NCBI GenBank assembly: GCA_963808235.1
Contig: CAWEEQ010000004.1
Location: forward strand, 1,056,001 to 1,120,000
Length of the DNA: 64,000 bases
Origin: an uncultured delta proteobacterium
GTDB taxonomy: Bacteria; Desulfobacterota; Binatia; Binatales; Binataceae
Reading direction: 5' to 3'
The notes under the pieces are model-generated. The model ran no database searches. It worked only from the letters and a program-made list of their open reading frames with translations, and was not told where the DNA came from. Below, in pieces: positions 3,292 to 45,464 of the stretch (within the stretch, counting starts at the first letter, position 1; each line of letters opens with the position of its first letter). The position numbers and the translations under genes were made by a program.

Positions 3292-4394
3292 CTCGCAGGT
3301 GCGGGCGCGTTCTGGACTACCTGCCAGATCGCATAGAACGGAAAGTCGGGATGCGCCTTGGCGATTGAGATTATCTGCTCGATCGTCGCGCGCAGATCGC
3401 CATGATTCATCCGGTCGAGTGCGGCGAGATTATCGGTATCGTGGAAATAGATAAGGTAGTTCACCAGCACAGCGTTATTCAGCGGCTCCTTGTCGAGATC
3501 GAACCGCTCCAGACCCGACAGTGAGGGTTCGAGTGCCGCGTAGTCTTTCTGGATTGCTGCAAAGGCGGCCTCGCGGCGCTTGCGCTTCTCAGCTTTCGAA
3601 AGATCGCTCACGTAGATATCGAGCAGGCGCGCCTGCTCCTGCAAAAGGAAGCGTGCGAACTTGAGATCGCTATCGAGAACCTCGCGCGCGGCAATCGTAT
3701 CGGGCGCGGAATTGCCCTCCGTCGCCGCGAAGAATGCTACCGCGCCCGCGCTGCCGACATAGGTCGCCGCCGATTCGTTGAACATCGCGTCGCTCGGCAG
3801 ATAGTAGGTGCGATGAAACAGCTCGTGGATGAGCACGCCGGCGAGCTCGACGCGGCTCAGCTTGAGCAAATTAGTAAGCACCGGATCGCTGAAGAAGCCG
3901 AGACTCGAGAACGCGACCGCAGGCCGGATCATCGTGTCGAGTCCGTTAGCCTCCAGCGCCTGAGCTTCCGCGCTCGCTTCAGTCGCGTCGAAGTAGCCGC
4001 GATAAGGCACCCGGCCGACGATCGGGAACCACCATGTGTACGGCTCGAGTGAATCGCGCGGCGCCGCCATCACGACGTGGATCACAGCGCGTTGATCGAC
4101 CGGTGCGAAGCTCCGATAAGCTCCACCGACATTGAGGTCGAGTTGTTCGGCTGCAAACTTGCGCACCGCAAGCACGGTCTCGAGCTTGGCGCGAACGTCT
4201 TCGGACAGATCCTTTCGCGCGAGCGCGTCGTCAATCGGCTTACGCTGCCATAGAATGCGGCCTTCCTCGTACGCAGCACGCGCGAGGTACCCGACGTAGC
4301 ATCCGCTGAGCGCAATCGGCGCGAGCAAAATCCCGAGCGCTATTGCGAACAGTCGAGCCTGCGCCGAAGCGCGTCGGCGCATCATGCGCTCCAC
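3285..4394 (-). CDS. Putative zinc aminopeptidase lipoprotein
   Basis: LSGC lipobox; WWFPIVGRVPYRGYF; HELFH zinc motif; FNESAA. Confidence 0.85.
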   Translation of the reverse strand: MERMMRRRASAQARLFAIALGILLAPIALSGCYVGYLARAAYEEGRILWQRKPIDDALARKDLSEDVRAKLETVLAVRKFAAEQLDLNVGGAYRSFAPVDQRAVIHVVMAAPRDSLEPYTWWFPIVGRVPYRGYFDATEASAEAQALEANGLDTMIRPAVAFSSLGFFSDPVLTNLLKLSRVELAGVLIHELFHRTYYLPSDAMFNESAATYVGSAGAVAFFAATEGNSAPDTIAAREVLDSDLKFARFLLQEQARLLDIYVSDLSKAEKRKRREAAFAAIQKDYAALEPSLSGLERFDLDKEPLNNAVLVNYLIYFHDTDNLAALDRMNHGDLRATIEQIISIAKAHPDFPFYAIWQVVQNAPAPASH

Positions 4395-4405
4395 GACTTC
4401 CCGAG

Positions 4406-6247
4406 TCAGCCCGCCACGAGGCGGTCGTTGTTAGCCATCGCGGCGTACTGCAATTCAAACAGCCGGTAGTAGAGTCCGCGCTGCGCGAGGAGTTCGTCGT
4501 GAGTGCCGCTTTCGCGAAGTATGCCGCCGCCCAGCACCATGATGCGATCGGCGCGCTCGATGGTGGAGAGGCGATGCGCGATGACTACCGCCGTCCGGTC
4601 GGCCAGCAATTCGTTCAAGGCAAGCTGAATCAGGCGCTCGGTCTCGCTGTCCACGCTCGAGGTTGCCTCGTCCATCACGAGAATTCGCGGGTCGTAAGCG
4701 AGCGCCCGGGCAAACGAGAGGAGCTGCCGCTGACCCGCGGAAAGATTAGCGCCGCGCTCGCTGATCTCCTCGGCCAGTCCGTGCGGGAGCCTCTTCACGA
4801 ATCTGAGCGCTTGCGCACGGGTCAACGCGCTGGTCACTTCGCGCTCACCGAGCTCGGTCCGTGACAGCCGGATATTTTCCATCACGTCGCCTGCGAACAG
4901 AAATACGTCCTGCTGCACGTAGCCGATCTCGCGCCTCAATGCGGCCAGATCCCATTCGCGCACGTCGATTCCGTCGACCAGGATTCGCCCGCTGGTAACG
5001 TCGTACGAGCGATTCAGCAGCTTGATGATCGTGGTTTTTCCCGAGCCGGTGGCGCCGACGATTGCGATCTTCATCCCGGGGTCAACGGTGAAGCTCAAAT
5101 CGCGCAGCACCGGCTCGCCGCGTCTATATTCGAAAGTCACGTGGTCGAAAACAATCGCGCCCCGCGACTTGGCCGGTATCCTGGCAATAGCGGGAAGAGA
5201 GAGCGGCTTCTCAGACTGCATCAGCGCGTTGATTCTCTCGATCGAAGCCAGCCCGGATTGGAGTGCGGCGTACTTGGTCGAGATTTCGCGCAGCGGCATG
5301 AAGAATTGCTGTGCGTACTGAATGAAGGCAATCAGGGTGCCCAGCGTGACCGCCCGGCGTATCACGCTGCCGCCGCCAACCCAGAGAATAACCGCGATCG
5401 TGATCGAGCTGACCGCCTCGACCGAAGAGAACTGGGCGGCCTCATAGACGTTACCCATCATCTGCGCGTCGCGGGCACGGATGTTGAGCGCATCGAACTC
5501 CCGGCGGCTTTCGCGTTCGCGGGTAAAAAGCTGCACGACGATCATGCCCGCCAGCGATTCCGACAGATACGCGTTGAGGGCCGCCAGACGGTCGCGAATC
5601 TGCCCGTAGATGATCCGCGACTGGGCGGCCAGATAGTAAATAATCAGGGTGAGCGGCGGAATCGCGCACAGCGCCCACAGCGCGAGCCGGGGACTTTGCG
5701 TGAACATGATGGTCACGATTCCCGCCAGTTGCAGTCCGTCCATGAACAAGGTCAGCGAACCGGCCGCGAACATGTCGTTGATCGCATCGATGTCGGTGGT
5801 CATGCGGCTCACCAGCCGGCCGACCGGCGTGCGGTCGAAAAACGACATCGGTAGGCGCTCGACCTTGCCGAATAGTGCGAGGCGCAAGTCGGAGAGGCTG
5901 TATTGCGCGACCATCATCATCAGGTAGAACTGGCCATAGAAAAATCCGAACTCCCCAATCACCAACAGCAGATACAAAAGGCCCATCACGAACAGGCCGT
6001 GTCCGCCTGACGCTTTGAAGAGTACCGCGAGCCACGCCGGCGGCGTCGCGCCGTGCTTGCCGGAAAGGAATTCGTCGACTGTCAGCTTGATGATGTAAGG
6101 CTGTGCGAGCAGGAAACATATATCCAGCGGCATCATCACCACCGAGGCCCAGAACAGCCGCCGGTACGGACGCACGAATTGCCACACCCATCGCAGCAAT
6201 GCGGTGTCGTAGATTTTGACCAGCGCTTGTTCTTCGGCGACCTGCAT
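4406..6247 (-). CDS. ABC exporter, fused permease/ATPase (MdlB-like)
   Basis: TM domain; GATGSGKT; degenerate LSAGQ signature; DEATSS. Confidence 0.92.
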   Translation of the reverse strand: MQVAEEQALVKIYDTALLRWVWQFVRPYRRLFWASVVMMPLDICFLLAQPYIIKLTVDEFLSGKHGATPPAWLAVLFKASGGHGLFVMGLLYLLLVIGEFGFFYGQFYLMMMVAQYSLSDLRLALFGKVERLPMSFFDRTPVGRLVSRMTTDIDAINDMFAAGSLTLFMDGLQLAGIVTIMFTQSPRLALWALCAIPPLTLIIYYLAAQSRIIYGQIRDRLAALNAYLSESLAGMIVVQLFTRERESRREFDALNIRARDAQMMGNVYEAAQFSSVEAVSSITIAVILWVGGGSVIRRAVTLGTLIAFIQYAQQFFMPLREISTKYAALQSGLASIERINALMQSEKPLSLPAIARIPAKSRGAIVFDHVTFEYRRGEPVLRDLSFTVDPGMKIAIVGATGSGKTTIIKLLNRSYDVTSGRILVDGIDVREWDLAALRREIGYVQQDVFLFAGDVMENIRLSRTELGEREVTSALTRAQALRFVKRLPHGLAEEISERGANLSAGQRQLLSFARALAYDPRILVMDEATSSVDSETERLIQLALNELLADRTAVVIAHRLSTIERADRIMVLGGGILRESGTHDELLAQRGLYYRLFELQYAAMANNDRLVAG

Positions 6248-6249
6248 CG

Positions 6250-8004
6250 TCAGTACCGGGTCAATTCCTCTTCGAGCAACTGGCGGCGGAACAACTCAGC
6301 GTAGATTCCGTGCCGGCCCATCAGCTCCTCATGGGTGCCGCGCTCCGCAATCTCTCCGTCTTCGAGCACGACTATCTGATCGGAATCGCGCACCGTGGAC
6401 GCGCGATGCGCCACCACGATGGTCGTGCGCCCCTGCACACTTTGCTCCAGGCTCTCCAGCACCGCCTTCTCGGTTTCGGTATCGACGCTCGAAAGCGCGT
6501 CGTCCAGCACCACGATTGCGGGGTTGTAGGCGAGCAGTCTCGCGATAGTCACGCGTTGCTTCTGTCCGCCGGAGAGCGACATTCCGCGTTCGCCGACAAT
6601 CGTGTCGTAGCCGTGCGCCAGCGTCGCGATGTCCGGTTCAAGGCCTGCGATCTGTGCCGCCTGCTGAATGTCGCTCGGTTCGGCGTCAACTTTGCCGAAC
6701 GCGATGTTGCGCGCGAGCGTATCGGAAAAAAGCGTAGGCTCCTGCGGGACCATCCCGACCGTCCGCCGCAACGCGCCCAGCGGCAACTCGTGAACGTCGC
6801 GGCCGTCGAGCATCACGCGTCCCTCAGTCGGTTGGAGCAGACGGACGAGCAGCTTCACCATCGTGGATTTTCCCGATCCGGTGCGGCCCACGATCGCCAA
6901 CTTCTCGCCTGCGCCCACCTTCACGTTGATGTTCTTGAGCGCGTAGGGAATTTTGCCATTGCTTCCATCGCCGTCGCCCGCGAAATAGCTGAACGAAACG
7001 TTTTTCCATTCGATCGCGCCGTTCACCACCAGCTTAAGGTCGCTTCCCGCGATGCTGTCTGCGCCGCGCGCGTCGAAGATCTCGTCGAGCCGTTTCATCG
7101 ACGCTTTGCCGCGCTGATATATGGAGAGCATCCAGCCGAGCGAAATCGTCGGCCACGCGAGTTGTCCTAGGTAGCTTAGAAACGCAACCAGCGAGCCGAG
7201 CGACAAGCGCCCATTGATCACCAATGACCCGCCGTATATCAGCACGATCATGGTCGCGCATGCCGACGCGCCGCGGATCATCGGCATCATCGCGCCGCGC
7301 GTCCGCGCCAGCGCCAGCCCCGATTCGTTGTAGGTGTCGTTGATCTTGCGGAACAGTCCCGCCTCGTGCTCTTCGAGCGTGTAGGCTTTTACGACGTGGA
7401 TGCCCGCCAGGCTCTCCTGGACTTTCGCGCCAATCGCGGCGAGGCCTTCCTGGACCTTCAGACTGCGCACCATCATCGCGCGCATCAAAAAAAAGCGGAT
7501 ACCGACAAAGAGCACCAGGTACGGAATGATCGCGAAGAAGGTAAGGCGCCCGTTGAGCGAAGTCATGAATATGAGCGCGAGACCATATATCAGAGGCGTG
7601 TTCGCGATCGTCAACACGAACATCCCGACCATCATTCGCACCGCCGCCAGGTCGTTGATCATCCGCGACATCAGGTCGCCGGTCTTGAAGCGCTGGTAGA
7701 AATCGGCGTTGAGGGTGGTCAGATGCTCGAACAGATCGTTGCGTAGATCGTATTCGATGTCGCGCCCGATATTGAAAATGACGAATCGCGAGAACCATCG
7801 CACGATTCCCAAAACGACCGCGAAGGCGATCATCAGTTCGCTGTAGTACACGACGCGGTCCATACGGTCGGCGCTCATCGCATTGATCGCGTTGCGCAGA
7901 AAGAGCGGGATGACCATAGCGAGCGTCCCGGTTGCGAACGTGCACCCGATTCCGAACGCGTAACGCAGCCAGTAGCGGCGCATGTAGGACAGCAGTCGTT
8001 TCAT
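6250..8004 (-). CDS. ABC exporter, fused permease/ATPase (MdlA-like)
   Basis: TM domain; GRTGSGKS; LSGGQ; LDDALS. Likely heterodimer partner of the adjacent gene. Confidence 0.92.
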   Translation of the reverse strand: MKRLLSYMRRYWLRYAFGIGCTFATGTLAMVIPLFLRNAINAMSADRMDRVVYYSELMIAFAVVLGIVRWFSRFVIFNIGRDIEYDLRNDLFEHLTTLNADFYQRFKTGDLMSRMINDLAAVRMMVGMFVLTIANTPLIYGLALIFMTSLNGRLTFFAIIPYLVLFVGIRFFLMRAMMVRSLKVQEGLAAIGAKVQESLAGIHVVKAYTLEEHEAGLFRKINDTYNESGLALARTRGAMMPMIRGASACATMIVLIYGGSLVINGRLSLGSLVAFLSYLGQLAWPTISLGWMLSIYQRGKASMKRLDEIFDARGADSIAGSDLKLVVNGAIEWKNVSFSYFAGDGDGSNGKIPYALKNINVKVGAGEKLAIVGRTGSGKSTMVKLLVRLLQPTEGRVMLDGRDVHELPLGALRRTVGMVPQEPTLFSDTLARNIAFGKVDAEPSDIQQAAQIAGLEPDIATLAHGYDTIVGERGMSLSGGQKQRVTIARLLAYNPAIVVLDDALSSVDTETEKAVLESLEQSVQGRTTIVVAHRASTVRDSDQIVVLEDGEIAERGTHEELMGRHGIYAELFRRQLLEEELTRY

Positions 8005-8051
8005 GGGCAGTGCACTAAACTATCAGGTCTGACGCGCGAGAAAAGACTGGC

Positions 8052-8813
8052 TCAAAGCGCATCGCGCGATTTCAGCCGGCGTTCGTAGAGCTTCGCGTAT
8101 TTCAAAAATACATAGAACGCCGCCGCCATCGAAGCGTACAAACCGCGGCCGCCGTCGCGAAAGCCGCCGCGAATAAAATAAAAATTGAAAAAGCGCCAGC
8201 ACGGATTTGCGAACATCTTGAACGCGGTCATCGCCGTCGGCTCCTGCTCCAATGCGGCGCGCGAGCTGAAGCGGTTCATCGTAGCGACGTGATCTGAGAT
8301 GTCTCGATAGCTGAAGTGCAGGATCGGATGATCGAGACGCTCGACGCGTCCTTCGACCACCACCTTGTCGTGAGGATCGCGGCCGCCGATATGCCCACGA
8401 TCGCGCCGGAACAATCGCACCGGCGTGTCGGGATAAATGTTGTGCGCGTAGTAGTGGCCGAGGTGATAAAGGATGCGCCGAATCCGGTAGCCGTCGGCCG
8501 GCGCCGGCGACGATACCGCGCGAATGATTTCCTCGCCCAGATCGTGCGTCGCCTGCTCGTCGGCATCCATCAGCAGCACCCAGTCGCCGGTTGCGCGATC
8601 GAGCGCCATCTGCTTCTGCATCACATAGTTGGTGAACTCGTGCTGAATGACGTTGGCGCCGAGGTCGCGCACGATGTCGACGGTCTTATCGGTCGAAAAC
8701 GAATCGATCACGATCTTCTCGTCGCAGAACCACGCGCTCTTCAAGCACTGGCCGATCAGCGCTTCTTCATCGCGAGTGATCGTGATCAGCGAAATCTTTG
8801 GACGGTCGGGCAT
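8052..8813 (-). CDS. Glycosyltransferase family 2 (WaaE/KdtX-like)
   Basis: VIDSFSTDKT, WVLLMDADE, ILHFSY motifs. Confidence 0.88.
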   Translation of the reverse strand: MPDRPKISLITITRDEEALIGQCLKSAWFCDEKIVIDSFSTDKTVDIVRDLGANVIQHEFTNYVMQKQMALDRATGDWVLLMDADEQATHDLGEEIIRAVSSPAPADGYRIRRILYHLGHYYAHNIYPDTPVRLFRRDRGHIGGRDPHDKVVVEGRVERLDHPILHFSYRDISDHVATMNRFSSRAALEQEPTAMTAFKMFANPCWRFFNFYFIRGGFRDGGRGLYASMAAAFYVFLKYAKLYERRLKSRDAL

Positions 8814-8817
8814 CGGC

Positions 8818-9904
8818 TCAAACGCGCGTTGCTCCTTCGGGCGAGACGGTTTGCTTCGGACGATCCAGCTCCTCGATGACCTTCGCCGCGATCGACTGGA
8901 ATACGATGCTCACCGGATGCGTTGGGTTCGCCGCAACGATCGGACTCGCCTCATCGCCGCCCTCGCGAAGTTCGCGCACCAGTGGCAGCTCGCCCAGAAA
9001 CGGAACCCCGAGCGACTGCGCAAGCCGCTCGCCGCCGCCGTGCGCGAAAATTTCGTGGCGATGATTGCACTTGCGGCACTGGTAATAGCTCATGTTCTCG
9101 ACCACGCCGAGCACCGGCACGTGAACTTCCTCGAACATCGCAACTCCGCGCTTAACGTCGAGTAGCGCAATTTCCTGCGGCGTCGTTACGATCACTCCAC
9201 CGGCCAGCGACACCCGCTGCGTGATCGTCAACTGCGCGTCGCCGGTCCCCGGTGGCAGGTCGAGCACCAGGCAATCCAGCTCGCCCCATTCGACGTTGAA
9301 CAGGAACTCGGTCTCAAGCTTTGTGACCATCGGCCCGCGCCAGATGATCGCCGTCTCATCGTTGACGAACAGCGCCATCGAGATGTACCTGATGCCGAAA
9401 CGCTCGAGTGGAATGATCCGGCGCTCGGGCGTGAGCGTGACCGCCTTCTCGACGCCCGACCATCATCGCGACGCTCGGGCCGTAGACGTCTGCGTCCATC
9501 AAGCCGATCCGCCATCCGAGCGCACGCATCGCAAGCGCGAGATTCACCGCAACCGTCGACTTGCCGACTCCGCCCTTGCCGCTGGCGACTGCGACTATAT
9601 GCTTGACGCCGGCAATCGCTCGAGGTCCCGACATCGCGCCGGCCGCTTTGGGAGCCGTTTGCGAAGCCTGCTCGATCGCGACGTTGACCGCCGGCACGTT
9701 CGCCATCGCGCTCACTACCTGCTTGACCTCGGCAACGATTTTCTCGACGACATCCGGCTTCGCAGACGCAATCGTGAGCGTGACCGTGACGCTCGCATAG
9801 GCAACTTCGATATCTTTCACGATACCGAACGACACGATGTCGCGGGTGAAGCCCGGATACTTTACTTTCTTGAGCTCGGCGAGAATTTCATTGGGACTCG
9901 GCAT
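8818..9904 (-). CDS. mrp: Mrp/ApbC Fe-S cluster carrier ATPase, frameshifted near 9455
   Basis: [11 protein letters not shown] and DADVYGPS in one frame; [14 protein letters not shown] and ENMS in another. Confidence 0.88.
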
Positions 9905-10037
9905 CGTGCGGATTGGACCTGGCGTCTTTCGGTTTGGATGTGGCCGCGTTATGAAAGCCTGCGGCTCATGTTATCATTCCGGAACCTCCGGAAAAACGAC
10001 GCTCGGAGTCGTCGGGAAATCTATATCGAGTGAGAAA

Positions 10038-11924
10038 GTGAGAAAAGCCGGCACCAGCGCACGCGCGTACCCGCGAATCCGCTTCAGCAATCGCGATGGT
10101 GAAGTAGCGAATCTCTGTGCTCGCGACCTGACCAGCGGACTTGCCGCGATGCTTGGACGCTCGATCGAGGCATCCGCCGAGGCGTCGCTGGATCGTACGG
10201 AAATCGTGATCGATCTGGGCGACGGCGCCGAATCGGCGCATCCGGAACGTCACGCACTCGAAGGCGACAGCTACGAAGTCTCGCGGCAGGGCGGCGAGTC
10301 CGGATCGATCGCGATCAGATCGGGCACAGAGCGAGGACTTATTCGCGCCGGCACTGATTTGCTCGAAAAGCTCGGCGCCCGATTCGCTCCAGGTGTCGAT
10401 CCGGTGTATCGGCATATCGAAGCTCGGCAGTTCGCCGCCATCGAACCCTTTCGCGTCACGCCCGCGTTCAAGCGCCGCGCCTTCGTGTCCGACATCATGA
10501 CCTGGAACTACAATTTCCCCGACCGCCTCGAATTGCATCTTCGCCACGATCGCGAATTCATCCCCTGGATGGCCCGCCGCGGCATCAACGCCTTCTCCTA
10601 CATCCGCCACGCTCACGACACCCGCCTCAAGATTGACGAGCTCGCGCCCCTGTTCCGCGAGCGCGGAATCAGCGCCGAGTACGGCGGCCACGTCCTCCAA
10701 CTCCTTCTTCCGCGCGATCGCTTCGACACGAATCCCGATTTTTTCCCCGCCGACGAGAACGGCGCGCGTATGCCCCAGGGAAATCTGTGCGTATCAAATC
10801 GTGAGGCACTCGCGATTGTCTGCGAGGGTTCGCTCGCCTACGTGCGCGAGCATCCCGAAAATGAGCTGCTCCACGTCTGGGGTGCCGACGTCCGCAAAGG
10901 CGCGTGGTGCCGATGCGCTCAGTGCCGCGAACTCGCGCCGCAGATCCAATATATGGATGTCGTCAATGCGATCGCCGCGAAACTCGCCGACGCCGACGCG
11001 CCGCCGGTCGCGTACCTCGCCTATCACGACACCATCGATCCGCACCCCGGCTTGAAGCCGCTTCCGAACGTATCGGTCGAATGGGCCCCGCGCGAGCGAT
11101 GCTACAGCCACGCGATTGACGACTCCTCGTGTGAGGTCAACCCGCGCTACCTCGAGTCGCTGAAGCGTTACATCGAAACCTTCGACGGCCGCGCTCACGT
11201 CTTCGAGTACTACGCCGACGCGATCCTGTTCGGCGGCCTCAGCTTCGCAACGCCAGCGGTCGTCGTGCGCGATCTTCGCGCATATCGCGCGCTCGGCATC
11301 ACCAGCATTTCGTGCCTCACCTTCGGCGCCTACAGCGTGATGGCCTATCCCGTGAACCTCGAGGCATTCGTGCGCGCGTCGATCAATCCCAACTTCGAGC
11401 CCGACGCTGCTTCGACCGAGACTGCCGCGGGACGCCATCCGCGATGCTCTCCTGAAATGACCACGGCGTACCGCGCAGTCGAGCGCGCGTCGAAGCTATG
11501 CCTCGACTATGCCGATGTGATGGCGTTCGTGATGCCGCCCGACAAGGCGGCGCGCAAGCGCGACGAGCTCCGCGAGGCGGCTCTGACATTCAACGAGGCT
11601 ATTGCGGCGGCCGATCAGATCGCGCCGAATCTCGACACTCCGCTCGCCGACGCTGAGAAAGAGCTCTGGCGCTACAGCAGTGACGTGCTCTCAGGCCTCT
11701 CCGAATATCTGGCCGCGCGCGAAGACCACACGGACAGGCGTGTCGCGCGCGGCGAGGCCGCGATCGCAAAAGTCAACGCCGCAATCGACCACATCCGCAA
11801 AATCGATCTCGAAATTAAGGGAACCTGGGGCGCGTACGATCTCGAATGGATCCGCGAGATGTGGCTCAACGCGCTCCGACGCGGCCTCGATGGCGCGGCA
11901 AAACCTGCGGAGGCACTATTCTGA
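10038..11924 (+). CDS. DUF4838-like protein (glycoside-hydrolase-like TIM barrel); start uncertain
   Basis: N-terminal GH20/67-like domain; WMARRGIN, NLCVSN, WCRCAQC and YLAYH motifs. Confidence 0.65.
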   Translation: MRKAGTSARAYPRIRFSNRDGEVANLCARDLTSGLAAMLGRSIEASAEASLDRTEIVIDLGDGAESAHPERHALEGDSYEVSRQGGESGSIAIRSGTERGLIRAGTDLLEKLGARFAPGVDPVYRHIEARQFAAIEPFRVTPAFKRRAFVSDIMTWNYNFPDRLELHLRHDREFIPWMARRGINAFSYIRHAHDTRLKIDELAPLFRERGISAEYGGHVLQLLLPRDRFDTNPDFFPADENGARMPQGNLCVSNREALAIVCEGSLAYVREHPENELLHVWGADVRKGAWCRCAQCRELAPQIQYMDVVNAIAAKLADADAPPVAYLAYHDTIDPHPGLKPLPNVSVEWAPRERCYSHAIDDSSCEVNPRYLESLKRYIETFDGRAHVFEYYADAILFGGLSFATPAVVVRDLRAYRALGITSISCLTFGAYSVMAYPVNLEAFVRASINPNFEPDAASTETAAGRHPRCSPEMTTAYRAVERASKLCLDYADVMAFVMPPDKAARKRDELREAALTFNEAIAAADQIAPNLDTPLADAEKELWRYSSDVLSGLSEYLAAREDHTDRRVARGEAAIAKVNAAIDHIRKIDLEIKGTWGAYDLEWIREMWLNALRRGLDGAAKPAEALF

Positions 11925-37546: not shown

Positions 37547-39379
37547 TTACCGGCCGGCTGCGATTCGGCCTTCTGATGGGCCGGCGTTGAGTGCCGCGAG
37601 GATTTTCTTGCGCCGCTCCGTCAATTCTTTCGGCATCGTCGGACCGATCTTTTCGAAAAACTCCGCCGCCGATTCGAGCTCCGCGGTCCATTCCTCGGGA
37701 CGCACTGCGAGCGCTTCTCCCGCACCGCCTTGGGCGCCAGGTCGAGGCCCTTCAGATCGAGGTCAGCTTCGTTGGGCACGATTCCGACCGGCGTCTCGCG
37801 TCCGCCCGCGCGTCCATGGATTCGATCGAGCATCCACTTCAGCACGCGCAGATTTTCGCCATAACCCGGCCAGATGAAATTGCCGTCCGCGCCTTTGCGA
37901 AACCAATTAACCATGAAGATGCGCGGTGGCTTTTTGATCGCAGGCGCGCATCTTGAGCCAATGCGCGAAATAGTCGCCGATGTTGTAGCCGCAGAACGGG
38001 AGCATCGCCATCGGATCGCGGCGCAGCACGCCGACCGCTCCTGAAGCCGCCGCGGTCGTTTCGGAACCCATCGTCGCGCCCATGAAAACGCCCTGCGCCC
38101 AGTCCGTCGACTCGAGTACCAGCGGCACCGTCGAGGCGCGCCGCCCGCCGAAGATGATCGCCGAAATCGGCACACCCTTAGGTTCGTCGGCAGCCGGTGA
38201 CCATGCGGGATTGTTGCGCATCGGAGTCGTGAAGCGGCTATTCGGATGCGCCGCCTTGTCCTTCGACGTTTTGCTCCACGGGCGCCCCTGCCAATCGAGC
38301 ATCCCGTCGACTGCGGGCACGTCCATCCCTTCCCACCACACATCGCCGTCAGCAGTCATCGCGACGTTGGTGAAAATCGAATCGTGCTCGACCATCTTCA
38401 TCGCGTTCAGATTCGATTTCGCGCTGGTTCCTGGCGCCACGCCGAAGTATCCATTTTCCGGATTGATCGCCCACAGACCGCCGTCAGGCCCGACCTTCAG
38501 CCACGCAATATCGTCGCCGACCGTGAAGACCTTCCATCCTTTGAGCTCGGCCGGCGGGGTCAGCATCGCAAGATTGGTCTTGCCGCATGCGCTCGGAAAA
38601 GCCGCCGCGACATAAGTGGTCTCGCCCTCAGGACTTTGCAGGCCGAGGATCAGCATGTGCTCCGCGAGCCATCCCTCGTCGCGTCCGAGCGCACTTGCGA
38701 TTCGAAGCGCGAAACATTTCTTGCTCAGCAGAGCATTGCCGCCGTAGCCGCTGCCCACCGAGATGATCGTATTGTCTTTTGGAAAATGGCAAATCAGCCG
38801 CCGCTCCGGATTCAGGTCGAGCGTGCAATGAATTCCGCGATTGAAATTATTTGACTCGCCGAGTTGCGCGAGCGCCGCGGAGCCCATCCGCGTCATGATT
38901 CGCATGTTCAGCACAACATAGATGCTGTCGGTCAGCTCCACGCCGACCTTCGAGAACGGCGACCCGATCGGGCCCATCACGTACGGCACCACGTACATCG
39001 TGCGCCCGCGCATCGATCCGTCGAGCCATCCACGCAGCTTCGCGTAAGTTTCTTTGGGGTCGGACCAGTTGTTGGTAGGGCCCGCTTCTTCGCGAGTTTC
39101 GGTGCATACGAACGTCAGTTGCTCGGTGCGCGCGACGTCGTTCGGGTTCGATCGATGCAGATAACAGCCGGGACGTTTCGTTTGGTTGAGCGGAATCAGA
39201 ATCCCGGCATCGACAGCTTGCTGCGTCAGGCGATTTCGCTCGGCCTCGGACCCGTCACACCAGACGACGGCATCGGGCCGGGTGAGGAGCGCGACTTCGC
39301 TTACCCAATCGTTGAGCGCTCGGCTGGCTGTCGGAGAATTGTTCTTTTCGGGATTCGGCGTCACTTCGATTCGCTCCAC
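37547..39379 (-). CDS. pckG: GTP-dependent PEP carboxykinase, frameshifts near 37935 and 37715
   Basis: [32 protein letters not shown]; VNWFRK..WPGYGEN in a second frame. Confidence 0.93.
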
Positions 39380-39521
39380 TTGTGCCTCTATTGTAATTAT
39401 TAGCAACCACACGGCAACCAATCTCGGATCGTAATATCTAGATTAGCAGATCGGAAGAATCAAGGGGACTATTATAAGCGGTTCTTCACGGCCCGAGCGC
39501 ATCAAAAAGCGCCTCGGCAGA

Positions 39522-39551
39522 AAAAAACGCCCCGGAATTACCCGAGGCGTC
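39522..39551 (-). terminator. Intrinsic terminator of the ferritin-like operon
   Basis: On the minus strand, ACGCCTCGG..CCGGGGCGT followed by a T-tract. Confidence 0.7.
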
Positions 39552-39582
39552 TCAAAGAGATCGCGATTTGAAACGGCGCCGA

Positions 39583-40353
39583 TCAGTAAGCCGCGCTCTT
39601 GCGCGCCGATTCAATCAGCCGCTGGATCTCTTCTTCGGTGAATCCCGCCAGCATCCGCGCCTCTTTCGCAATCGACACGACTTGTCCGTCGTCGTTCTCG
39701 ATATCTTCCTGCGCGCGCCGTCCGCCGCGGAAGTTGAAGACCGAATCGACCATCTCCTGGAACTCTTGCGCTTTTTTGAGCCGCTCGGGGTCGCCCTCGG
39801 TCAACTTGCGCATCCACTTCGAGCCCATCCGGACGTGAGTGATCTCGTCTGCGAGTACGTAATCCACCGAGCGCTCGATCACTTCGTCGCCGTTGCGCTG
39901 CGCGATCCGAATCAGCTGATCGAAGACGTCGCACGCAAGTCCCTCGAGTCCGCGATTTATTCCGGCGACTCGCGCCGCGGGATCCATCGCCTGGGTGCAT
40001 CGCCACAAAATTTCCGTCTCGACGTAGTCGCCCGGATGCCCTCCCATGTACTCGACCAGGCGCTGGAAAATCTCGCTGTGGCGCGCTTCGTCCCATACCT
40101 GGCGCGCCATGTCGAGCTGGAATTCCCACGGCGCGTCGGGAAAATCGAACAGCGTGCGTCCGGCCGCCTCCATCGCCTGCAACTCGCCGGTGTAAATCCC
40201 ATGCAGGCGCGAGCGCAGCGTTTCCTCGTCGAAGGGCAGGGGACGTCCACCGTCGAGTCCCTGCTCTTCGCGGATTTCGCGGACTTGGCGGCTGCGCATC
40301 ACGACCCAATTGTCGGGCCGCGCGAGGCGATCAACTGGAATGCACTTCTGCAT
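39583..40353 (-). CDS. Ferritin-like diiron protein (DUF455-like)
   Basis: GELQAME / DEARH / GLEGLA / DEITH four-helix ligand set. Confidence 0.8.
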   Translation of the reverse strand: MQKCIPVDRLARPDNWVVMRSRQVREIREEQGLDGGRPLPFDEETLRSRLHGIYTGELQAMEAAGRTLFDFPDAPWEFQLDMARQVWDEARHSEIFQRLVEYMGGHPGDYVETEILWRCTQAMDPAARVAGINRGLEGLACDVFDQLIRIAQRNGDEVIERSVDYVLADEITHVRMGSKWMRKLTEGDPERLKKAQEFQEMVDSVFNFRGGRRAQEDIENDDGQVVSIAKEARMLAGFTEEEIQRLIESARKSAAY

Positions 40354-40378
40354 AATTCATTTCCTCTGATTCGACGCT

Positions 40379-41179
40379 CTAGTATGCCGAGCTTTTGCCG
40401 AAGCCTTTGACGAGCCGGTCGATCTCTTCTTCGGTGAAGCCCGCGAGCAGACGCGCCTCGCGCGCAATCGTGATACCCGAGTCGATTTCGATTTCCTTAT
40501 CGCCGACGCGCTGCTTGATTTGCCCGGCCTGCTCGACAAAGGTGCGGCCGCCGCCGAAGTTGAAAAGATCGTCGATGCTGTTCTGGAAGTCCTGCGCCTT
40601 TTTGAAACGCTCGGGGTCGCCTTCGGTGAGCTGGCGCATCCATTTCGAGCCCATCCGCACGTGCGTGATTTCGTCGGCCAGCACGTAATCCACCGAGCGT
40701 TCGATAATCGGATCGCCCATCTTCTGCGCAAGCCGGATCAGCTGCTCGAAGACGTCGCACGCGAGCCCTTCGAGTCCGCGATTTATTCCCGCCACTCGCG
40801 CCGCCGGATCCTCGGCCTGCGTGCAAGACCACAATACTTCGCCCTCGGGAAATTCGCCGTAGTAGGACCCGACGTATTCGAGCAGCTTCAAATAAATCTC
40901 CGCGTGGCGCGATTCGTCCCACACCTGGCGCGCCATGTCGAGCTGGAATTCCCACGGTGCGTCGGGAAAATCGTAGAGCGTGCGCCCGGCCGCTTCCATC
41001 GCCTGGAACTCGCCGGCGCAGATTCCGTGCAGGCGCGATTTCAGGAAATCCTCCTCGTACGGCATCGCGTTGGCTGCCGCGAGTCCCTGTTCGGTGCGTG
41101 CGTTTCGCAATCGCTGCGCCGGCAGCAGAACGTGGTCCTCGGGCCGCGCGAGTTTGTCGACGGAAATCATTCGCTGCAT
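40379..41179 (-). CDS. Ferritin-like diiron protein (DUF455-like), close paralog of 39583-40353
   Basis: GEFQAME / DESRH / GLEGLA / DEITH; long identical blocks shared with its neighbour. Confidence 0.8.
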   Translation of the reverse strand: MQRMISVDKLARPEDHVLLPAQRLRNARTEQGLAAANAMPYEEDFLKSRLHGICAGEFQAMEAAGRTLYDFPDAPWEFQLDMARQVWDESRHAEIYLKLLEYVGSYYGEFPEGEVLWSCTQAEDPAARVAGINRGLEGLACDVFEQLIRLAQKMGDPIIERSVDYVLADEITHVRMGSKWMRQLTEGDPERFKKAQDFQNSIDDLFNFGGGRTFVEQAGQIKQRVGDKEIEIDSGITIAREARLLAGFTEEEIDRLVKGFGKSSAY

Positions 41180-41194
41180 GATGATGACGCTCCT

Positions 41195-41590
41195 CTACTT
41201 GGTCCAGGCCGATCGCCGGCCGGTCAAATTCAAAACTTCACGCACCGTCCATCTGCCGGCTTCTTCGCCGAGCCGAAATTGAATTGTGAACGGCTCAACG
41301 TCACTGCCGCTTAAGCGCGCCTTCAAAAAATAATGCTTGGCGACGCGTCCGCGCCCGAGCAGCTCGAACTTATCATAGGCGCCCGGCTTGAGCGCACTCG
41401 TGATTCGCGCGATATCCTCGCGCGCTTGCGCAGTCGTCATGCCTTCGACCGCCGCCAGATCGCCGCGCATCATCGCGGTCAGTAGCTGTCCCGCCGCGGC
41501 GAGCATCGCGGCCGGCGGCTCGACTACTTTGCCGATCGGCTGCGGCCCCATCACGTTGCCGCGATCTCCAAGGTCAGGCATTGCCATTCT
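41195..41590 (-). CDS. Small hypothetical protein (NTF2-like pattern); start uncertain
   Basis: Helix-then-strands pattern ending WTVREVLNLTGRRSAW. Confidence 0.6.
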   Translation of the reverse strand, partial: RMAMPDLGDRGNVMGPQPIGKVVEPPAAMLAAAGQLLTAMMRGDLAAVEGMTTAQAREDIARITSALKPGAYDKFELLGRGRVAKHYFLKARLSGSDVEPFTIQFRLGEEAGRWTVREVLNLTGRRSAWTK

Positions 41591-41970
41591 CCGCACGCAC
41601 TTGCGCGGCCGCGGCCGCAAGCGTGGGCACGTCGCTCCACGGCGAGCGCTTGTTGGTCGTGTCCTCGACGCCCGCGATCATCCATGTGCCGCCGGCATCT
41701 TTGCGCCATCGATAGAGCACGCGCCGATGCGCCCCCGTGCCAACGATCCTCAGCTTCGAGATATATTGTCCGCCGATCTTCGCGAGCGCCAGCGTCTCGA
41801 CCGCGAGCGGCTTTTGCAGTCGTGCGATCTCCGCCGCAGCTCTGTCGATACGCATCGATTGCATCGCGATGCGCATATTTCTCGGCCCCGCCGATATCGC
41901 CGTCGGCAATCGCCTTCGCATGCGCCGCGATCGTCTCGCGCAATTCCGTCGTGTCGTAGGGTTGCTTCAT
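41574..41970 (-). CDS. Small hypothetical protein, paralog of 41195-41590, frameshifted near 41850
   Basis: MKQPYDTTEL.. in one frame, continuing AAAEIARL..WMIAGVEDTTNKRSPW in another. Confidence 0.6.
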
Positions 41971-41982
41971 TGGATTCGTAAC

Positions 41983-42609
41983 TTAGCTCCGTCCAACTTT
42001 CCGGCGCGGTTCCGGTGCATCAGTTTCAAAGCCGGTCACTCCGCCCGAAGCGCCGAGCAGACCTTCCAGATGCGATTGCCACTCGGAGGCCCTCCGATGC
42101 TTCTCCTTCGAATCGAGCAACTCCTCCAGCAGCACGTTGCCTCGCTCGACGTGTCCTTTCTCTTCTTCGACCAGCCGCTCCAGGATTCTGAGCGTCGGCG
42201 GCTCGTACACGGGATTCATCGCCGACACGTGAGAGCTGTAATGAGAAATCAGATGCGGCTTCAGCACGCGGTAGATTCCGACCAGCCGCTCGATCGTGTC
42301 CTCCCACTCCTCCTTGTCCTCGATAGCGTTCATGAATGTGACGAACGCTTCGTTAGGCGGCTTGGAGACCTGCGGCTGCGCGCGCAGCTCTGGGAGCCGC
42401 TTTCCGAGCGCGTCGGTATGGAGCGCGTCGTCATACACCTGCTTCGCCATCTCGAGCTTGACCGCGAGTTCCGGCGTCAGCGCGATCCAGCCGGCCATCA
42501 TGCGCATCATCCGTTCTTCGGCGTAGCGGTAATTTTGAATATAGATGACGCTCTGGCGGACGCTGTAAACGCCCTCGAGAGTTCGCCGATCGTATAGTGC
42601 CATGCCCAC
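41983..42609 (-). CDS. Ferritin-like protein with a partial ligand set
   Basis: AEERMM, DDALH and EEKGH motifs at four-helix-bundle spacing. Confidence 0.65.
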   Translation of the reverse strand: MGMALYDRRTLEGVYSVRQSVIYIQNYRYAEERMMRMMAGWIALTPELAVKLEMAKQVYDDALHTDALGKRLPELRAQPQVSKPPNEAFVTFMNAIEDKEEWEDTIERLVGIYRVLKPHLISHYSSHVSAMNPVYEPPTLRILERLVEEEKGHVERGNVLLEELLDSKEKHRRASEWQSHLEGLLGASGGVTGFETDAPEPRRKVGRS

Positions 42610-42645
42610 GACTCCTGCTTTCGATTTCGCGATAGCGCTCGAGTG

Positions 42646-43314
42646 TCAGCGCCCCAATGGCACGGGCGTCCCTGCCCGTGATCCGTTCCCGAAAAAACGT
42701 CCTTCGACGATCGCCGCAATCTCGCGCCAGTAAGTTTCCTTGTCGGTGCCTTTGAGATTGTTCGCGCCCATCGCCCATCCCGCGCACAACATATGAATCG
42801 CATGGACCGCGCTGCGCGCATCTTCAAAATGAATCTCGCCCATTTGCTTTCCGCGCTCGATAATCTCCGCGACCGCGCCCAGGTAGTCGCGGCCGATCTT
42901 CTTCATCGCGGTGCGATACTGCGCGCGGCGCTCCAGGTAGCGCGCCTCATGATGCAACACATTGAACGCCTCGCGGTATTTGTCGATCACGTCCAGGATC
43001 GCGCGCATCACGTCGATAAGCTCGCGACGCGGGTCGCCCGCAGTGCGCGCGCGAATCGCCGGCAGCATCTCGACAAACTCGGCCACCATCGACTCCGCGA
43101 TCAGCGGAATGATCTCGTCCTTGCTGTCGAGATAAAGATAGATCGAACCCGCGGCGAGCCCCGCCTCGAGCGCAAGCTCCTTGACCGAGGCCTCGTGAAA
43201 CGACTTGCGCGCCAGCACCCGGCAAGCAGCCAGAAAAATCTGCCGCCGCCGCGCCTTGACGAGTTTCCCGTCATCCTGCGCGGGCGTCCGTATAGCTTCA
43301 GCAGTTCGCGCCAT
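42646..43314 (-). CDS. TetR/AcrR family regulator
   Basis: SVKELALEAGLAAGSIYLYLDSKDEI helix-turn-helix. Confidence 0.92.
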   Translation of the reverse strand: MARTAEAIRTPAQDDGKLVKARRRQIFLAACRVLARKSFHEASVKELALEAGLAAGSIYLYLDSKDEIIPLIAESMVAEFVEMLPAIRARTAGDPRRELIDVMRAILDVIDKYREAFNVLHHEARYLERRAQYRTAMKKIGRDYLGAVAEIIERGKQMGEIHFEDARSAVHAIHMLCAGWAMGANNLKGTDKETYWREIAAIVEGRFFGNGSRAGTPVPLGR

Positions 43315-43361
43315 CGTAAGTGGTAGAGGCCGATCGCCAAGCGCTCGTCCTCAGTCCCTCA

Positions 43362-43390
43362 AATCTACTGAATGAACGTTCATTTGTCCA
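43362..43390 (-). promoter_or_regulatory. Promoter with palindromic TetR-type operator
   Basis: TGGACA-17nt-TAGATT on the minus strand; the spacer holds the perfect palindrome AATGAACGTTCATT (43371-43384). Confidence 0.7.
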
Positions 43391-43608
43391 GAGGCTTGCC
43401 TCTCCCGCCGGGAGAGGCAAGATTCCCTCTTCACACAACCTTCTAACAGGCGCTCCGCGCCGCATCCTCTTCCTGAATACTGGGTGCAGGGGTCACCCCT
43501 GCCGAAGGAAGTGTGAAACCCACCGCGGGTTTCACATTAAATCAAGTTGTCCCATTCCCTCTCTCCTGCGTTTCTCCCCCGCCGCATCCTTCTTATATGC
43601 TCACCGCT

Positions 43609-44055
43609 ATGCCCGAGAATTTCCAAAAAGAGAGCACTCTCGATCGATTCTTCAACCGCCTGATGGGCCGCCTGCTGCGCCTCGGATTCGCCCCCGGATA
43701 CATGCGACTGCTCGAAGTCCGCGGCAGAAAATCCGGCAAGCTCTTCACCACCCCGGTTAACCTGCTCGAATTCAACGGACGCCGCATCCTCGTCGCCGCT
43801 CGCGGTGAGACCGCATGGGCTCGCAATGCGCGCGCGGCCGGCCGCGTCACTCTCCGCCGCGGCGCCAGTGCTGAATCGCTCACGGTGCGCGAACTCGCCG
43901 ACGCCGACAAGCCCGAAGTCATCAAGGCGTTCCTCGATCGCTTCGCGTCGCAAGTCCAGCGCTTTTTCGAGGTGAAGGCAGGTTCCCCCGCCGCCGATTT
44001 TCGCGCGGTCTGCTCGCGCACTCCGGTATTTGAACTAGTCGCCGACTCCTCCTAA
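43609..44055 (+). CDS. Deazaflavin (F420)-dependent nitroreductase family protein
   Basis: LEVRGRKSGK..TPV, WARNARA, PVFEL. Confidence 0.85.
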   Translation: MPENFQKESTLDRFFNRLMGRLLRLGFAPGYMRLLEVRGRKSGKLFTTPVNLLEFNGRRILVAARGETAWARNARAAGRVTLRRGASAESLTVRELADADKPEVIKAFLDRFASQVQRFFEVKAGSPAADFRAVCSRTPVFELVADSS

Positions 44056-44159: not shown

Positions 44160-45464
44160 ATGCCAGAAAACCCCGCGCCCGGCACTTCCGACGATCCCAA
44201 TTACGCGATCGCCGCCGCAAAGCGTGAGCGCGCGACGATGCTCGCGTTACTCGCGATGCTCTTCTACCAGGGCTTCGCTGTCTCCATCGACGCGATCGCC
44301 GCAACCTGGATCGGCAAAAGCTTCAACCTCGACGGCGCCGGAATCGCCCGCCTGTTCGCGTGGATTTCCGTCTCGTCTCTCGGTGCGCTCGCGCTCTCCC
44401 GCATGATCGATCGATTCGGCCGCCGCCGCATGATCCTGTGGTGCATCGCCGCGATGCCGCTATGCAGCCTCGCCTCCGCCGCCGCGACCAACCTGATCGT
44501 CTTCACCTCGTTCCAAATCGCACTCTTCGCGTTCGTCGGCGCCGCCGGCGCGGGATGCATCGTGATGCTCTCCGAGGAACTCCCGATCGCACGCCGCGCA
44601 CAGGGGCAAAGCTTCGGCGGGCTGGCAGCCTCGATAGGAGCCGGAGTCTGCGTATTCCTGATGCCGATCTTCGTCGCCTACGGATGGTCGTGGCGATGGA
44701 TGTTCGTCATCTCCGCTGCGGGAATCGCGATGCTTCCCGCGATGGCCCGCCTGCTGCCCGAGAGCGAGCGATGGGAGCGTTCAGACGCCGCGGGTCACAC
44801 CAGCCGCACGAACTTTTACGACGTCTTTCAGCCGCTTTACCGCAAACGATCGATCACGATGATCCTATGCTCGCTGGCCGCCGCGATCTCGACCACCGCC
44901 GCCAACGCATTCGGCTACTACCACGCGGTTTCGGTGGTAGGCCTGTCAGCAGCAGCTACTAGCACTATGACGATCGTAGCAGGCGGAATAGCCTTGGCAG
45001 GTTTTCCACTAGGCGCATGGACCGCGGAAAGATTCGGCCGCGTGCCGACGGTAGTCAGCTTCGGCATCTTAATCACCGCCGGCCACCTATGGTTCTACTG
45101 GGGACCGCCAACACACTTCGCGTGGCCGCTGATGTGGCTGGCGACCGGCTACTTCTGGTTCAACCTATGCGACAACGGCGCAACGGTAGCGAGTAACGCC
45201 GCCGCCACGGAGCTATTTCCAACCGCACTAAGAGGCACGATGATAGGATGGTTCGCACTGGTAGGTGCCATAGGCGCCATATTATCCAACGCAGCAGTAG
45301 CTATGCTGGCCAACGCGGTGGGCGGTCTATCGATCGTAGTAGGCGCGCTATCTATAGTGGGAATCCCCGCAGCAATCCTGTTCGGCATGGTGATCGAAGA
45401 AACCCGCGGCCTAACCTTAGAGATGGCCTCCAAAGAATCCGAGTTCCACCCCCCAGAACAATAA
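44160..45464 (+). CDS. MFS transporter
   Basis: About 12 TM; DRFGRR, LPES, ERFGR, ELFPTALRG, EETRG. Confidence 0.93.
   Translation: MPENPAPGTSDDPNYAIAAAKRERATMLALLAMLFYQGFAVSIDAIAATWIGKSFNLDGAGIARLFAWISVSSLGALALSRMIDRFGRRRMILWCIAAMPLCSLASAAATNLIVFTSFQIALFAFVGAAGAGCIVMLSEELPIARRAQGQSFGGLAASIGAGVCVFLMPIFVAYGWSWRWMFVISAAGIAMLPAMARLLPESERWERSDAAGHTSRTNFYDVFQPLYRKRSITMILCSLAAAISTTAANAFGYYHAVSVVGLSAAATSTMTIVAGGIALAGFPLGAWTAERFGRVPTVVSFGILITAGHLWFYWGPPTHFAWPLMWLATGYFWFNLCDNGATVASNAAATELFPTALRGTMIGWFALVGAIGAILSNAAVAMLANAVGGLSIVVGALSIVGIPAAILFGMVIEETRGLTLEMASKESEFHPPEQ

Follow-up and report, generated by a model that had tools for sequence, protein, structure and literature searches.

A TetR-associated operon of DUF455 and NTF2-like proteins in an uncultured Binataceae bacterium: a candidate multi-subunit di-iron oxidase/oxygenase

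The stretch analysed here (the window; 64,000 nucleotides, positions 1,056,001 to 1,120,000 of contig CAWEEQ010000004.1 in assembly GCA_963808235.1) comes from the 4.59-Mb, four-contig genome of an uncultured Binataceae bacterium and contains a minus-strand operon that probably encodes an inducible, multi-subunit di-iron-carboxylate oxidase/oxygenase, PaaAC-like in organization and built on the uncharacterised DUF455 family. Six genes, in the order TetR-fer3-sm1-sm2-parB-parA, follow one another head to tail from 43390 to 39520 with intergenic gaps of 12-42 nt, and are flanked by a promoter-like site and a hairpin terminator (Table 1). The open reading frame (ORF) map thus bears out the tight packing described in an earlier reading of this sequence (the original prediction), and its interpretation as an inducible oxygenase/oxidase complex is partly supported by the data given below. 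The labels are used for genes and products alike: parA and parB are DUF455 di-iron-type proteins, fer3 is a ligand-depleted homologue predicted to be their partner subunit, and sm1 and sm2 are small, predicted NTF2-like proteins. PMC8262859 describes Binataceae as soil bacteria that are abundant and uncultured, and attributes methylotrophy and alkane degradation to them.

The DUF455 proteins and their ligand-depleted partner

Judged by score, parA (93.6 bits) and parB (105.1 bits) are members of Pfam DUF455 (PF04305; gathering cut-off, 34.3 bits). The two share 65% identity, and 'near-identical', as they had been called, was too strong. An alignment of 46 DUF455 sequences from three Binatia families was prepared, i.e. 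20 parA-type, 19 parB-type, and 7 single-copy sequences from other Binatia families. In this alignment, 85 positions are invariant and the di-iron ligands E57, E89, H92, E137, E170, and H173 (parB numbering) are present in all 46 sequences, so that the full E/ExxH/E/ExxH set read earlier in the two paralogues extends to all of their aligned relatives. The difference noticed beside the first ligand (GIYTGELQ versus GICAGEFQ) proved to be a true paralogue signature across orthologues: position 54 is Cys in 17 of 19 parB and Tyr or Phe in 19 of 20 parA sequences, and position 58 is Phe in 17 of 19 parB and Leu in 17 of 20 parA sequences. Since the single-copy relatives carry the parA state at both positions, parB appears to be the derived copy, with a remodelled pocket. 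In a quick tree with supports from the Shimodaira-Hasegawa-like approximate likelihood ratio test (SH-aLRT), the parA-type genes from five Binataceae genera group in a single clade (SH-aLRT 98), and the parB-type genes form a weaker group (SH-aLRT 82). The duplication would thus be older than these genera.

Other ferritin-like genes were seen outside the operon. One same-genus genome (G011) encodes a third DUF455 copy, 73% identical to parA, on contig C10 (748871-749635; locus L032), away from the operon and with no other operon genes within 5 kb. The genome that contains the window encodes, elsewhere, four more ferritin-like di-iron-type proteins of 332-380 amino acids (aa) (L003, L004, L005, and L006), which share the motifs FLHGEQGA...DEARH...EGLA...QDEARH. 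The ~338-aa type of these proteins also occurs in same-genus genomes without the operon (six of seven have a ~338-aa open frame).

The fer3 ORF spans 41983-42609, and the ATG at 42603 is the likely start because homologues are 205-206 aa long. fer3 scores 17.4 bits against Pfam DUF455, below the cut-off, and has no Pfam family above cut-off; its alignment with the DUF455 profile covers helices 2-4 (hhalign probability 97%, E 1.1e-10), and it thus appears to be a degenerate or remote DUF455 homologue. The original prediction held that it keeps only a DxxH and an ExxH motif. Both motifs are indeed retained in Binataceae fer3 (D59, H62, E148, and H151), but E30 is kept as well, and K115 replaces Glu at the fourth ligand position. 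Six distant orthologues keep E30 and H151 only and have Ser, Ala, Met, or Leu at the other four positions. Across 19 orthologues, these two are the only invariant residues among the six ligand positions, and the fer3 family as a whole therefore does not seem to be held to a di-metal site. In public data, fer3 carries no Pfam annotation and is named either 'hypothetical protein' or 'phenylacetyl-CoA epoxidase catalytic subunit', the latter an automatic name transferred to many fer3 homologues by JGI.

Three lines of evidence pair fer3 with DUF455. First, the two genes are adjacent in all 14 same-genus loci examined, in five loci belonging to other Binataceae genera, and, in reversed order (DUF455 followed by the fer3-like gene), in all six loci sampled from two other Binatia families, where the pair is the sole gene set common to the six. 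Second, fused forms exist. Among the 150 best representatives of the parB relatives, 16 proteins of 404-485 aa matched through their C-terminal halves; all 16 have a C-terminal DUF455 domain, and the N-terminal half matches the fer3 profile end to end (hhalign probability 100%, E 1.6e-51, 191 columns). Two of the eight fused clusters that were looked up carry names, namely those of a Polyangiaceae and a Bacteroidota metagenome-assembled genome (MAG). The analogy with systems that pair a catalytic subunit with a ligand-deficient one, drawn in the original prediction, gains support from these fused forms in other phyla. Third, a parB-fer3 interface is predicted, with an ipSAE (interaction prediction score from aligned errors) of 0.89 in three of three runs (0.00 for the best of three controls), at least 98% of contacts agreeing between runs, and a partner predicted local distance difference test score (pLDDT) of at least 88. 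It is formed by helices 1-2 of both proteins together with the invariant N-terminus of parB (residues 1-14). When the complex-prediction tool was calibrated, 58 of 80 solved complexes reached the threshold, as did 2 of 110 mismatched pairs; these figures are a rough guide here because self-made alignments were used. The predicted complex is support, not proof, for a heterodimer of fer3 with a DUF455 protein.

The C-terminus of fer3 contains a GG-x-x-G motif (GGVTG; G187, G188, and G191; approximately 42031-42045 in the window) that is invariant in 19 of 19 orthologues, and the fer3-like domain of the fused proteins ends with at least this GG. This invariant ending, and the weak matches (6.8e-5) of two of the 16 fused relatives to MiaE_2, would fit a DUF455 enzyme that modifies a macromolecule, for example a tRNA base, as MiaE does, or the GGVTG tail itself. 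Such a role is very improbable: the tail lies outside the predicted parB-fer3 contacts, the MiaE matches are weak and confined to a minority of the fused proteins, and the TetR repressor, a neighbouring major facilitator superfamily (MFS) transporter, and the NTF2-like proteins suggest small molecules.

AlphaFold2 models parB (pLDDT 89.8) as a ferritin-like helical bundle with N- and C-terminal additions; beyond the four-helix core, parA and parB share the invariant N-terminus and a C-terminal hairpin with helices. A Foldseek search of solved structures with this model returned nothing at E up to 0.001, with PaaC (3pvr_C) appearing at E 3e-3, and a search of the Protein Data Bank with the parB sequence had a repeat protein as its top match (E 0.005), no stretch of parB passing alone. 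A profile search of solved structures reached remote di-iron enzymes, including R2lox (7qbk, E 2.2e-4) and an aldehyde-deformylating oxygenase (ADO; 5k52, E 7.5e-4). A wide structural search gave a plateau at Z 12.6-14.5, comprising a VlmB homologue, aldehyde-deformylating oxygenases, monooxygenase hydroxylases, R2/R2lox, PaaA/PaaC, Dps, and bacterioferritins, with the VlmB homologue 6d9f at the top (Z 14.5 over 209 residues). In addition, a 387-aa public homologue of parB (P0016) has precomputed matches to both PF04305 and PF05138.

These fold matches also bear on the idea that the operon encodes iron-handling or oxidative-stress proteins under a stress-responsive repressor (a ferroxidase, a rubrerythrin- or Dps-like peroxide scavenger, or a manganese-catalase-like protein) and not a substrate-oxidizing enzyme. 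Dps-like, bacterioferritin, and manganese catalase chains reach Z 13-14.4, as high as the di-iron oxygenases, nine of the 16 fused relatives also match Pfam Ferritin, and passages of a proteomics study (PMC9988556) describe a shift in the abundance of a DUF455 protein with lanthanum. However, at 256-266 aa and with long conserved extensions, parA and parB differ from storage proteins of ~140-180 aa; the degenerate partner, the ligand-binding-type NTF2-like proteins, and a small-molecule sensor of the TetR family fit an enzyme better; and Fur- or PerR-type control is not seen. A storage or stress function is thus regarded as improbable.

The small proteins and the control region

sm1 and sm2 align end to end with 19-28% identity and share the invariant residues K79, R95, W103, and W118, in agreement with the common W...RSxW ending from which they had been recognized as paralogues. 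Neither has a match in Pfam. The AlphaFold2 model of sm2 (pLDDT 86.8; predicted template-modelling score, 0.78) consists of three helices on a curved four-stranded sheet, and Foldseek returned 31 chains at E up to 0.001, mostly NTF2-like. The best was 3fka_B (E 9.5e-5, TM 0.61), and the TM scores of the best NTF2-like matches were 0.61-0.64. Both small proteins are therefore predicted to be NTF2-like. Their public relatives are unnamed Binatota clusters, for which the phylum labels rest on few members. The genes for the NTF2-like proteins appear from their distribution to be a Binataceae addition to the operon.

In the window, sm1 is split: its first 44 codons and last ~88 codons lie in different frames, and comparison with three relatives shows a single extra base, located at 41840. 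Because sm1 is one ORF of at least 130 aa in all 14 same-genus loci, and because all three soil DNA runs covering the place (from three studies) leave the base out, the frameshift is probably an assembly error and not the mark of a pseudogene. One of the covering contigs, 455 letters long, differs from the window at only one other place. The gene for GTP-type phosphoenolpyruvate carboxykinase (PEPCK) downstream of the operon (37621-39421, minus strand) also looks split: a 504-aa ORF (37907-39421) stops early, and a second ORF in another frame (37621-38343) has the apparent C-terminal region of PEPCK (...NWFRKG...). Another single-base assembly error of the kind seen in sm1 is probably responsible.

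The fold of the small proteins raises the question of whether the operon encodes separate enzymes of a short catabolic or detoxification pathway instead of one five-protein complex, with the NTF2-like proteins acting as an isomerase, dehydratase, cyclase, or epoxide hydrolase on the product of DUF455/fer3, and with the divergent F420H2-dependent reductase and the MFS transporter encoded next to the operon serving the same route. Ketosteroid isomerases and bile-acid dehydratases are among the Foldseek matches of sm2. Acidic, His, and Tyr residues are typical of catalytic NTF2-like enzymes, but the residues invariant in both small paralogues are Lys, Arg, and two Trp, with none of those three kinds among them. 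This pathway, for which gene order and neighbouring genes also have to be considered (see below), is unlikely.

The regulator has the domain make-up of the TetR family, TetR_N and TetR_C_24 both being above their Pfam cut-offs. Among NCBIfam models, none was matched at cut-off, the best being Bacillus-type FadR (60.5 bits, with 200 needed). The perfect palindrome AATGAACGTTCATT at 43371-43384, seen earlier as an operator at the promoter, takes up the greater part of the 17-nt spacer that separates TGGACA from TAGATT. A single copy is present in the genome when up to one mismatch is allowed (the reversed control pattern occurs 0 times), and the palindrome is perfect in all 12 same-genus loci that include DNA upstream of TetR and in 68 of 85 further Binataceae loci. 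The 17 loci without a perfect copy are mostly one-mismatch variants, loci truncated upstream, or reduced forms without TetR. A promoter scan of 4 kb found one site with 0.8 expected from shuffled sequences, and the hexamers alone are thus not significant; the promoter-like site carries weight because the conserved palindrome sits inside its spacer. At the other end, the terminator inferred in the original prediction corresponds to a hairpin of 13 pairs with a U-run (-26.1 kcal/mol for a 76-nt stretch, z -2.3), which was absent from the output of a simple terminator/promoter scan. A palindrome that is unique, conserved, and located within the promoter spacer is consistent with a TetR operator overlapping its target promoter, and the arrangement appears to be that of a repressor-controlled operon, with the palindrome as the candidate operator.

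Conservation of the operon and its surroundings

Tandem parB/parA genes are present in 17 of 24 same-genus genomes; two of the 24, one with and one without the pair, are unpublished. Of 150 further genomes drawn from the class, 16 have a clear fer3 orthologue (E up to 1e-30); nine of these belong to Binataceae and seven to two other families. Gene order was surveyed in the best 80 of 247 fer3 relatives from species-representative genomes, 70 of which have enough flanking sequence to be judged. Nearly all of the 80 are labelled Binatus, Binataceae, or 'delta proteobacterium', and a few bear other labels. The operon genes thus co-occur in many Binataceae loci: the six-gene order is kept in 62 of the 70 evaluable ones, in clean form in 55 and with at least one gene split into pieces in seven. 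The other loci consist of fer3-sm2-parB only (three), TetR-fer3-sm1-sm2-parA (two), loci in which sm1 was not detected and a gap is found at its place (two), and a locus with no TetR match (one). The split genes (L065, L072, L074, L087, L089, L106, and L113) are in two or three pieces in different frames, mostly in one MAG assembly set; this suggests that indel errors are frequent in these assemblies, whose gene calls need care.

The three reduced fer3-sm2-parB loci (L071, L073, and L078) are without TetR, sm1, parA, and the palindrome, and in L078 the PEPCK gene directly follows parB. A further locus (L046) has the form TetR-fer3-sm1-parA. These reduced forms hint at sm2/parB and sm1/parA as cognate pairs, a pattern that two loci do not fit. 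They also count in favour of the pathway of separate enzymes.

In a distant-family locus (L037; genome G144, 3968-10533), the DUF455/fer3 pair stands in a different setting, with a divergent TetR gene and genes for a metallo-beta-lactamase-fold protein, a 4HBT thioesterase, a luciferase-like monooxygenase, and a 358-aa protein that has no Pfam match and carries an ExxH-like motif at its end. In one soil metatranscriptome, contigs from relatives match parts of parA, parB, fer3, and tetR at 92% or more; they are not evidence for transcription of the operon in the window itself.

Upstream of the operon and divergent from it lies a gene for a deazaflavin-dependent oxidoreductase-like protein (TIGR00026, 52.9 bits with a cut-off of 46.35), which is found in this position in 47 of 63 evaluable Binataceae loci. 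The MFS transporter gene beyond it is present in 27 of the 63. Its product matches best, among NCBIfam models, the aromatic acid/H+ symporter subfamily, at 88 bits and thus far below the 418-bit cut-off. The genome encodes CofH (444.8 bits; cut-off, 374.1) and CofE (282.7 bits; cut-off, 180.65), and coenzyme F420 is therefore probably made. The divergent oxidoreductase gene and the F420 biosynthesis genes count in favour of the pathway set out above. Against this, the synteny of the reductase and transporter genes is confined to one family in which the whole region is syntenic, and their linkage to the operon may reflect inheritance and not function. As a conserved electron carrier, a Rieske protein was considered and rejected: it is encoded near the DUF455/fer3 pair only in four loci of genus g47, other distant loci being without it.

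Table 1. Features of the operon and of its immediate surroundings in the window
Feature	Position	Strand	Evidence or remark
Intrinsic-terminator-like hairpin and U-run, between parA and the PEPCK gene	39520..39553	-	13 pairs
parA, DUF455 di-iron-type protein, 256 aa, slower-evolving paralogue	39583..40353	-	Full ligand set
parB, DUF455 di-iron-type protein, 266 aa	40379..41179	-	Full E/ExxH/E/ExxH set
sm2, predicted NTF2-like small protein, ~119 aa, paralogue of sm1	41195..41554 (start approximate)	-	Alignment, AlphaFold2 model, Foldseek
sm1, predicted NTF2-like small protein, 131 aa in relatives	41574..41970	-	Interrupted by extra base at 41840
fer3, ligand-depleted DUF455 homologue, 206 aa, predicted partner subunit	41983..42603	-	hhalign 97% against the DUF455 alignment
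TetR-family regulator, 222 aa	42646..43314	-	TetR_N 1.4e-9, TetR_C_24 3.3e-7
Promoter-like site	43362..43390	-	-35 TGGACA, 17-nt spacer, -10 TAGATT
Candidate TetR operator, perfect 14-nt palindrome AATGAACGTTCATT	43371..43384	.	Unique in genome at up to one mismatch
Deazaflavin (F420H2)-dependent oxidoreductase-like neighbour, divergent	43513..44055	+	PF04075 4.3e-10; operon link unproven
MFS transporter neighbour	44160..45464	+	MFS_1 3.4e-28; operon link unproven

Proposed function and relation to known di-iron systems

In the function that we propose, the core would be a heterodimer of a catalytic subunit, parA or parB, with fer3 as the structural partner, as PaaC is for PaaA. Duplication of the catalytic gene in Binataceae would have given two isoforms, to which two NTF2-like paralogues were added; these most likely bind or hand over a small molecule, hydrophobic and possibly anionic, or serve as specificity subunits. 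TetR would bind the spacer palindrome and let go upon meeting an inducer, which would presumably be the substrate or a related compound. The reduced di-iron site would then activate O2 and oxidize the substrate, with electrons coming from a donor encoded outside the operon.

Several observations weigh against this proposal. Metal binding and catalysis are deduced from sequence. None of the six operon genes matches a reductase, ferredoxin, or regulatory-protein family in Pfam at E up to 0.1, in line with the earlier remark that the operon encodes no reductase. Because parB and fer3 are homologues, the predicted heterodimer could be a generic, homodimer-like arrangement to be expected of any pair of DUF455 homologues, and close cousins of true partners passed in the calibration of the complex-prediction tool. 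At the level of the fold, non-enzymatic ferritin, Dps, and bacterioferritin chains tie with di-iron enzymes at the same Z, and a Z of ~13-14 among helical bundles may indicate just a common arrangement. A profile of the small proteins finds nothing in the six distant loci (E up to 10); in four distant genomes (92-97% complete), it finds none in three and a weak match (E 3.6e-4) in one. The distant versions lack the small proteins, which the core thus does not require. Finally, parB/parA were not found in 7 of the 24 same-genus genomes (82-98% complete), and the operon is thus dispensable.

A close parallel to the proposed heterodimeric enzyme is the phenylacetyl-CoA 1,2-epoxidase PaaABC(D)E, in which a catalytic ferritin-fold subunit with a full site associates with a homologue depleted of ligands, as is predicted here for parB and fer3. 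Small accessory genes lie alongside in both cases, and 3pvr_C and 3pvr_B (Z 12.8) are among the best fold matches of parB. In contrast to the Paa system, none of the six proteins matches the PaaA/PaaC family of Pfam (PF05138, E up to 0.1), there are no PaaB-, PaaD-, or PaaE-type matches in the operon, CoA-ligase and paa catabolic genes are not found nearby, and the catalytic gene is duplicated. The small proteins of the operon are NTF2-like by prediction and are set apart from PaaB by the fold of the latter. Bacterial multicomponent monooxygenases combine an alpha subunit with a homologous, metal-free beta subunit and small accessory proteins, and their hydroxylase chains appear in the parB fold list (1t0q_B, Z 14.0; 1fyz_A, Z 13.4). 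Unlike these enzymes, the operon has no Phenol_Hydrox or MmoB/DmpM match at E up to 0.1 and no reductase or Rieske ferredoxin gene, and its DUF455 subunits are 256-266 aa long compared with ~500 aa. The profile and fold searches matched best to ADO, R2lox, and VlmB-type oxidases. These enzymes consist of a single chain, carry a di-iron or Mn/Fe site, and bind hydrophobic ligands, and R2lox and ADO co-purify with fatty acids. Sequence identity is 12-18%, and they have neither a degenerate partner nor NTF2-like proteins. Because the Pfam models of the PaaA/PaaC and soluble di-iron monooxygenase families fail, and accessory and reductase components are missing, the enzyme appears to resemble PaaA/PaaC or the alpha/beta subunits of those monooxygenases but to belong to neither family.

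No match to an already characterised system emerged from the Protein Data Bank or from the literature searched. The passages retrieved for DUF455 (PF04305) merely list the family and name no characterised member, a search combining ferritin-like, NTF2-like, and diiron gave no match, and the main text of the main Binatota genomics paper does not mention ferritin, diiron, phenylacet, or F420. A bolder version of the proposal would have DUF455 and its degenerate partner make up a separate class of di-iron oxygenases, two-subunit or fused, in several phyla. In Binataceae, sm1 would deliver substrate to parA, or confer specificity on it, and sm2 would do so for parB, giving two isoenzymes on a shared scaffold, and F420H2, acting through the divergent oxidoreductase, would take the place of NAD(P)H and a ferredoxin as the source of electrons. 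We regard it as a long shot, and we know of no di-iron oxygenase that couples to F420H2 through a deazaflavin-dependent oxidoreductase.

No reaction is known for DUF455, a ferritin-like family that is widespread and has a complete di-iron site, and the operon provides an unusually well-defined handle on it. With a repressor whose candidate operator is resolved to the base, ligand screening could reveal the substrate, which the lineage-specific NTF2-like proteins may hold. An enzyme of this kind would enlarge the repertoire of di-iron biocatalysts, and a new O2-activating enzyme in Binataceae may bear on carbon turnover in soil.

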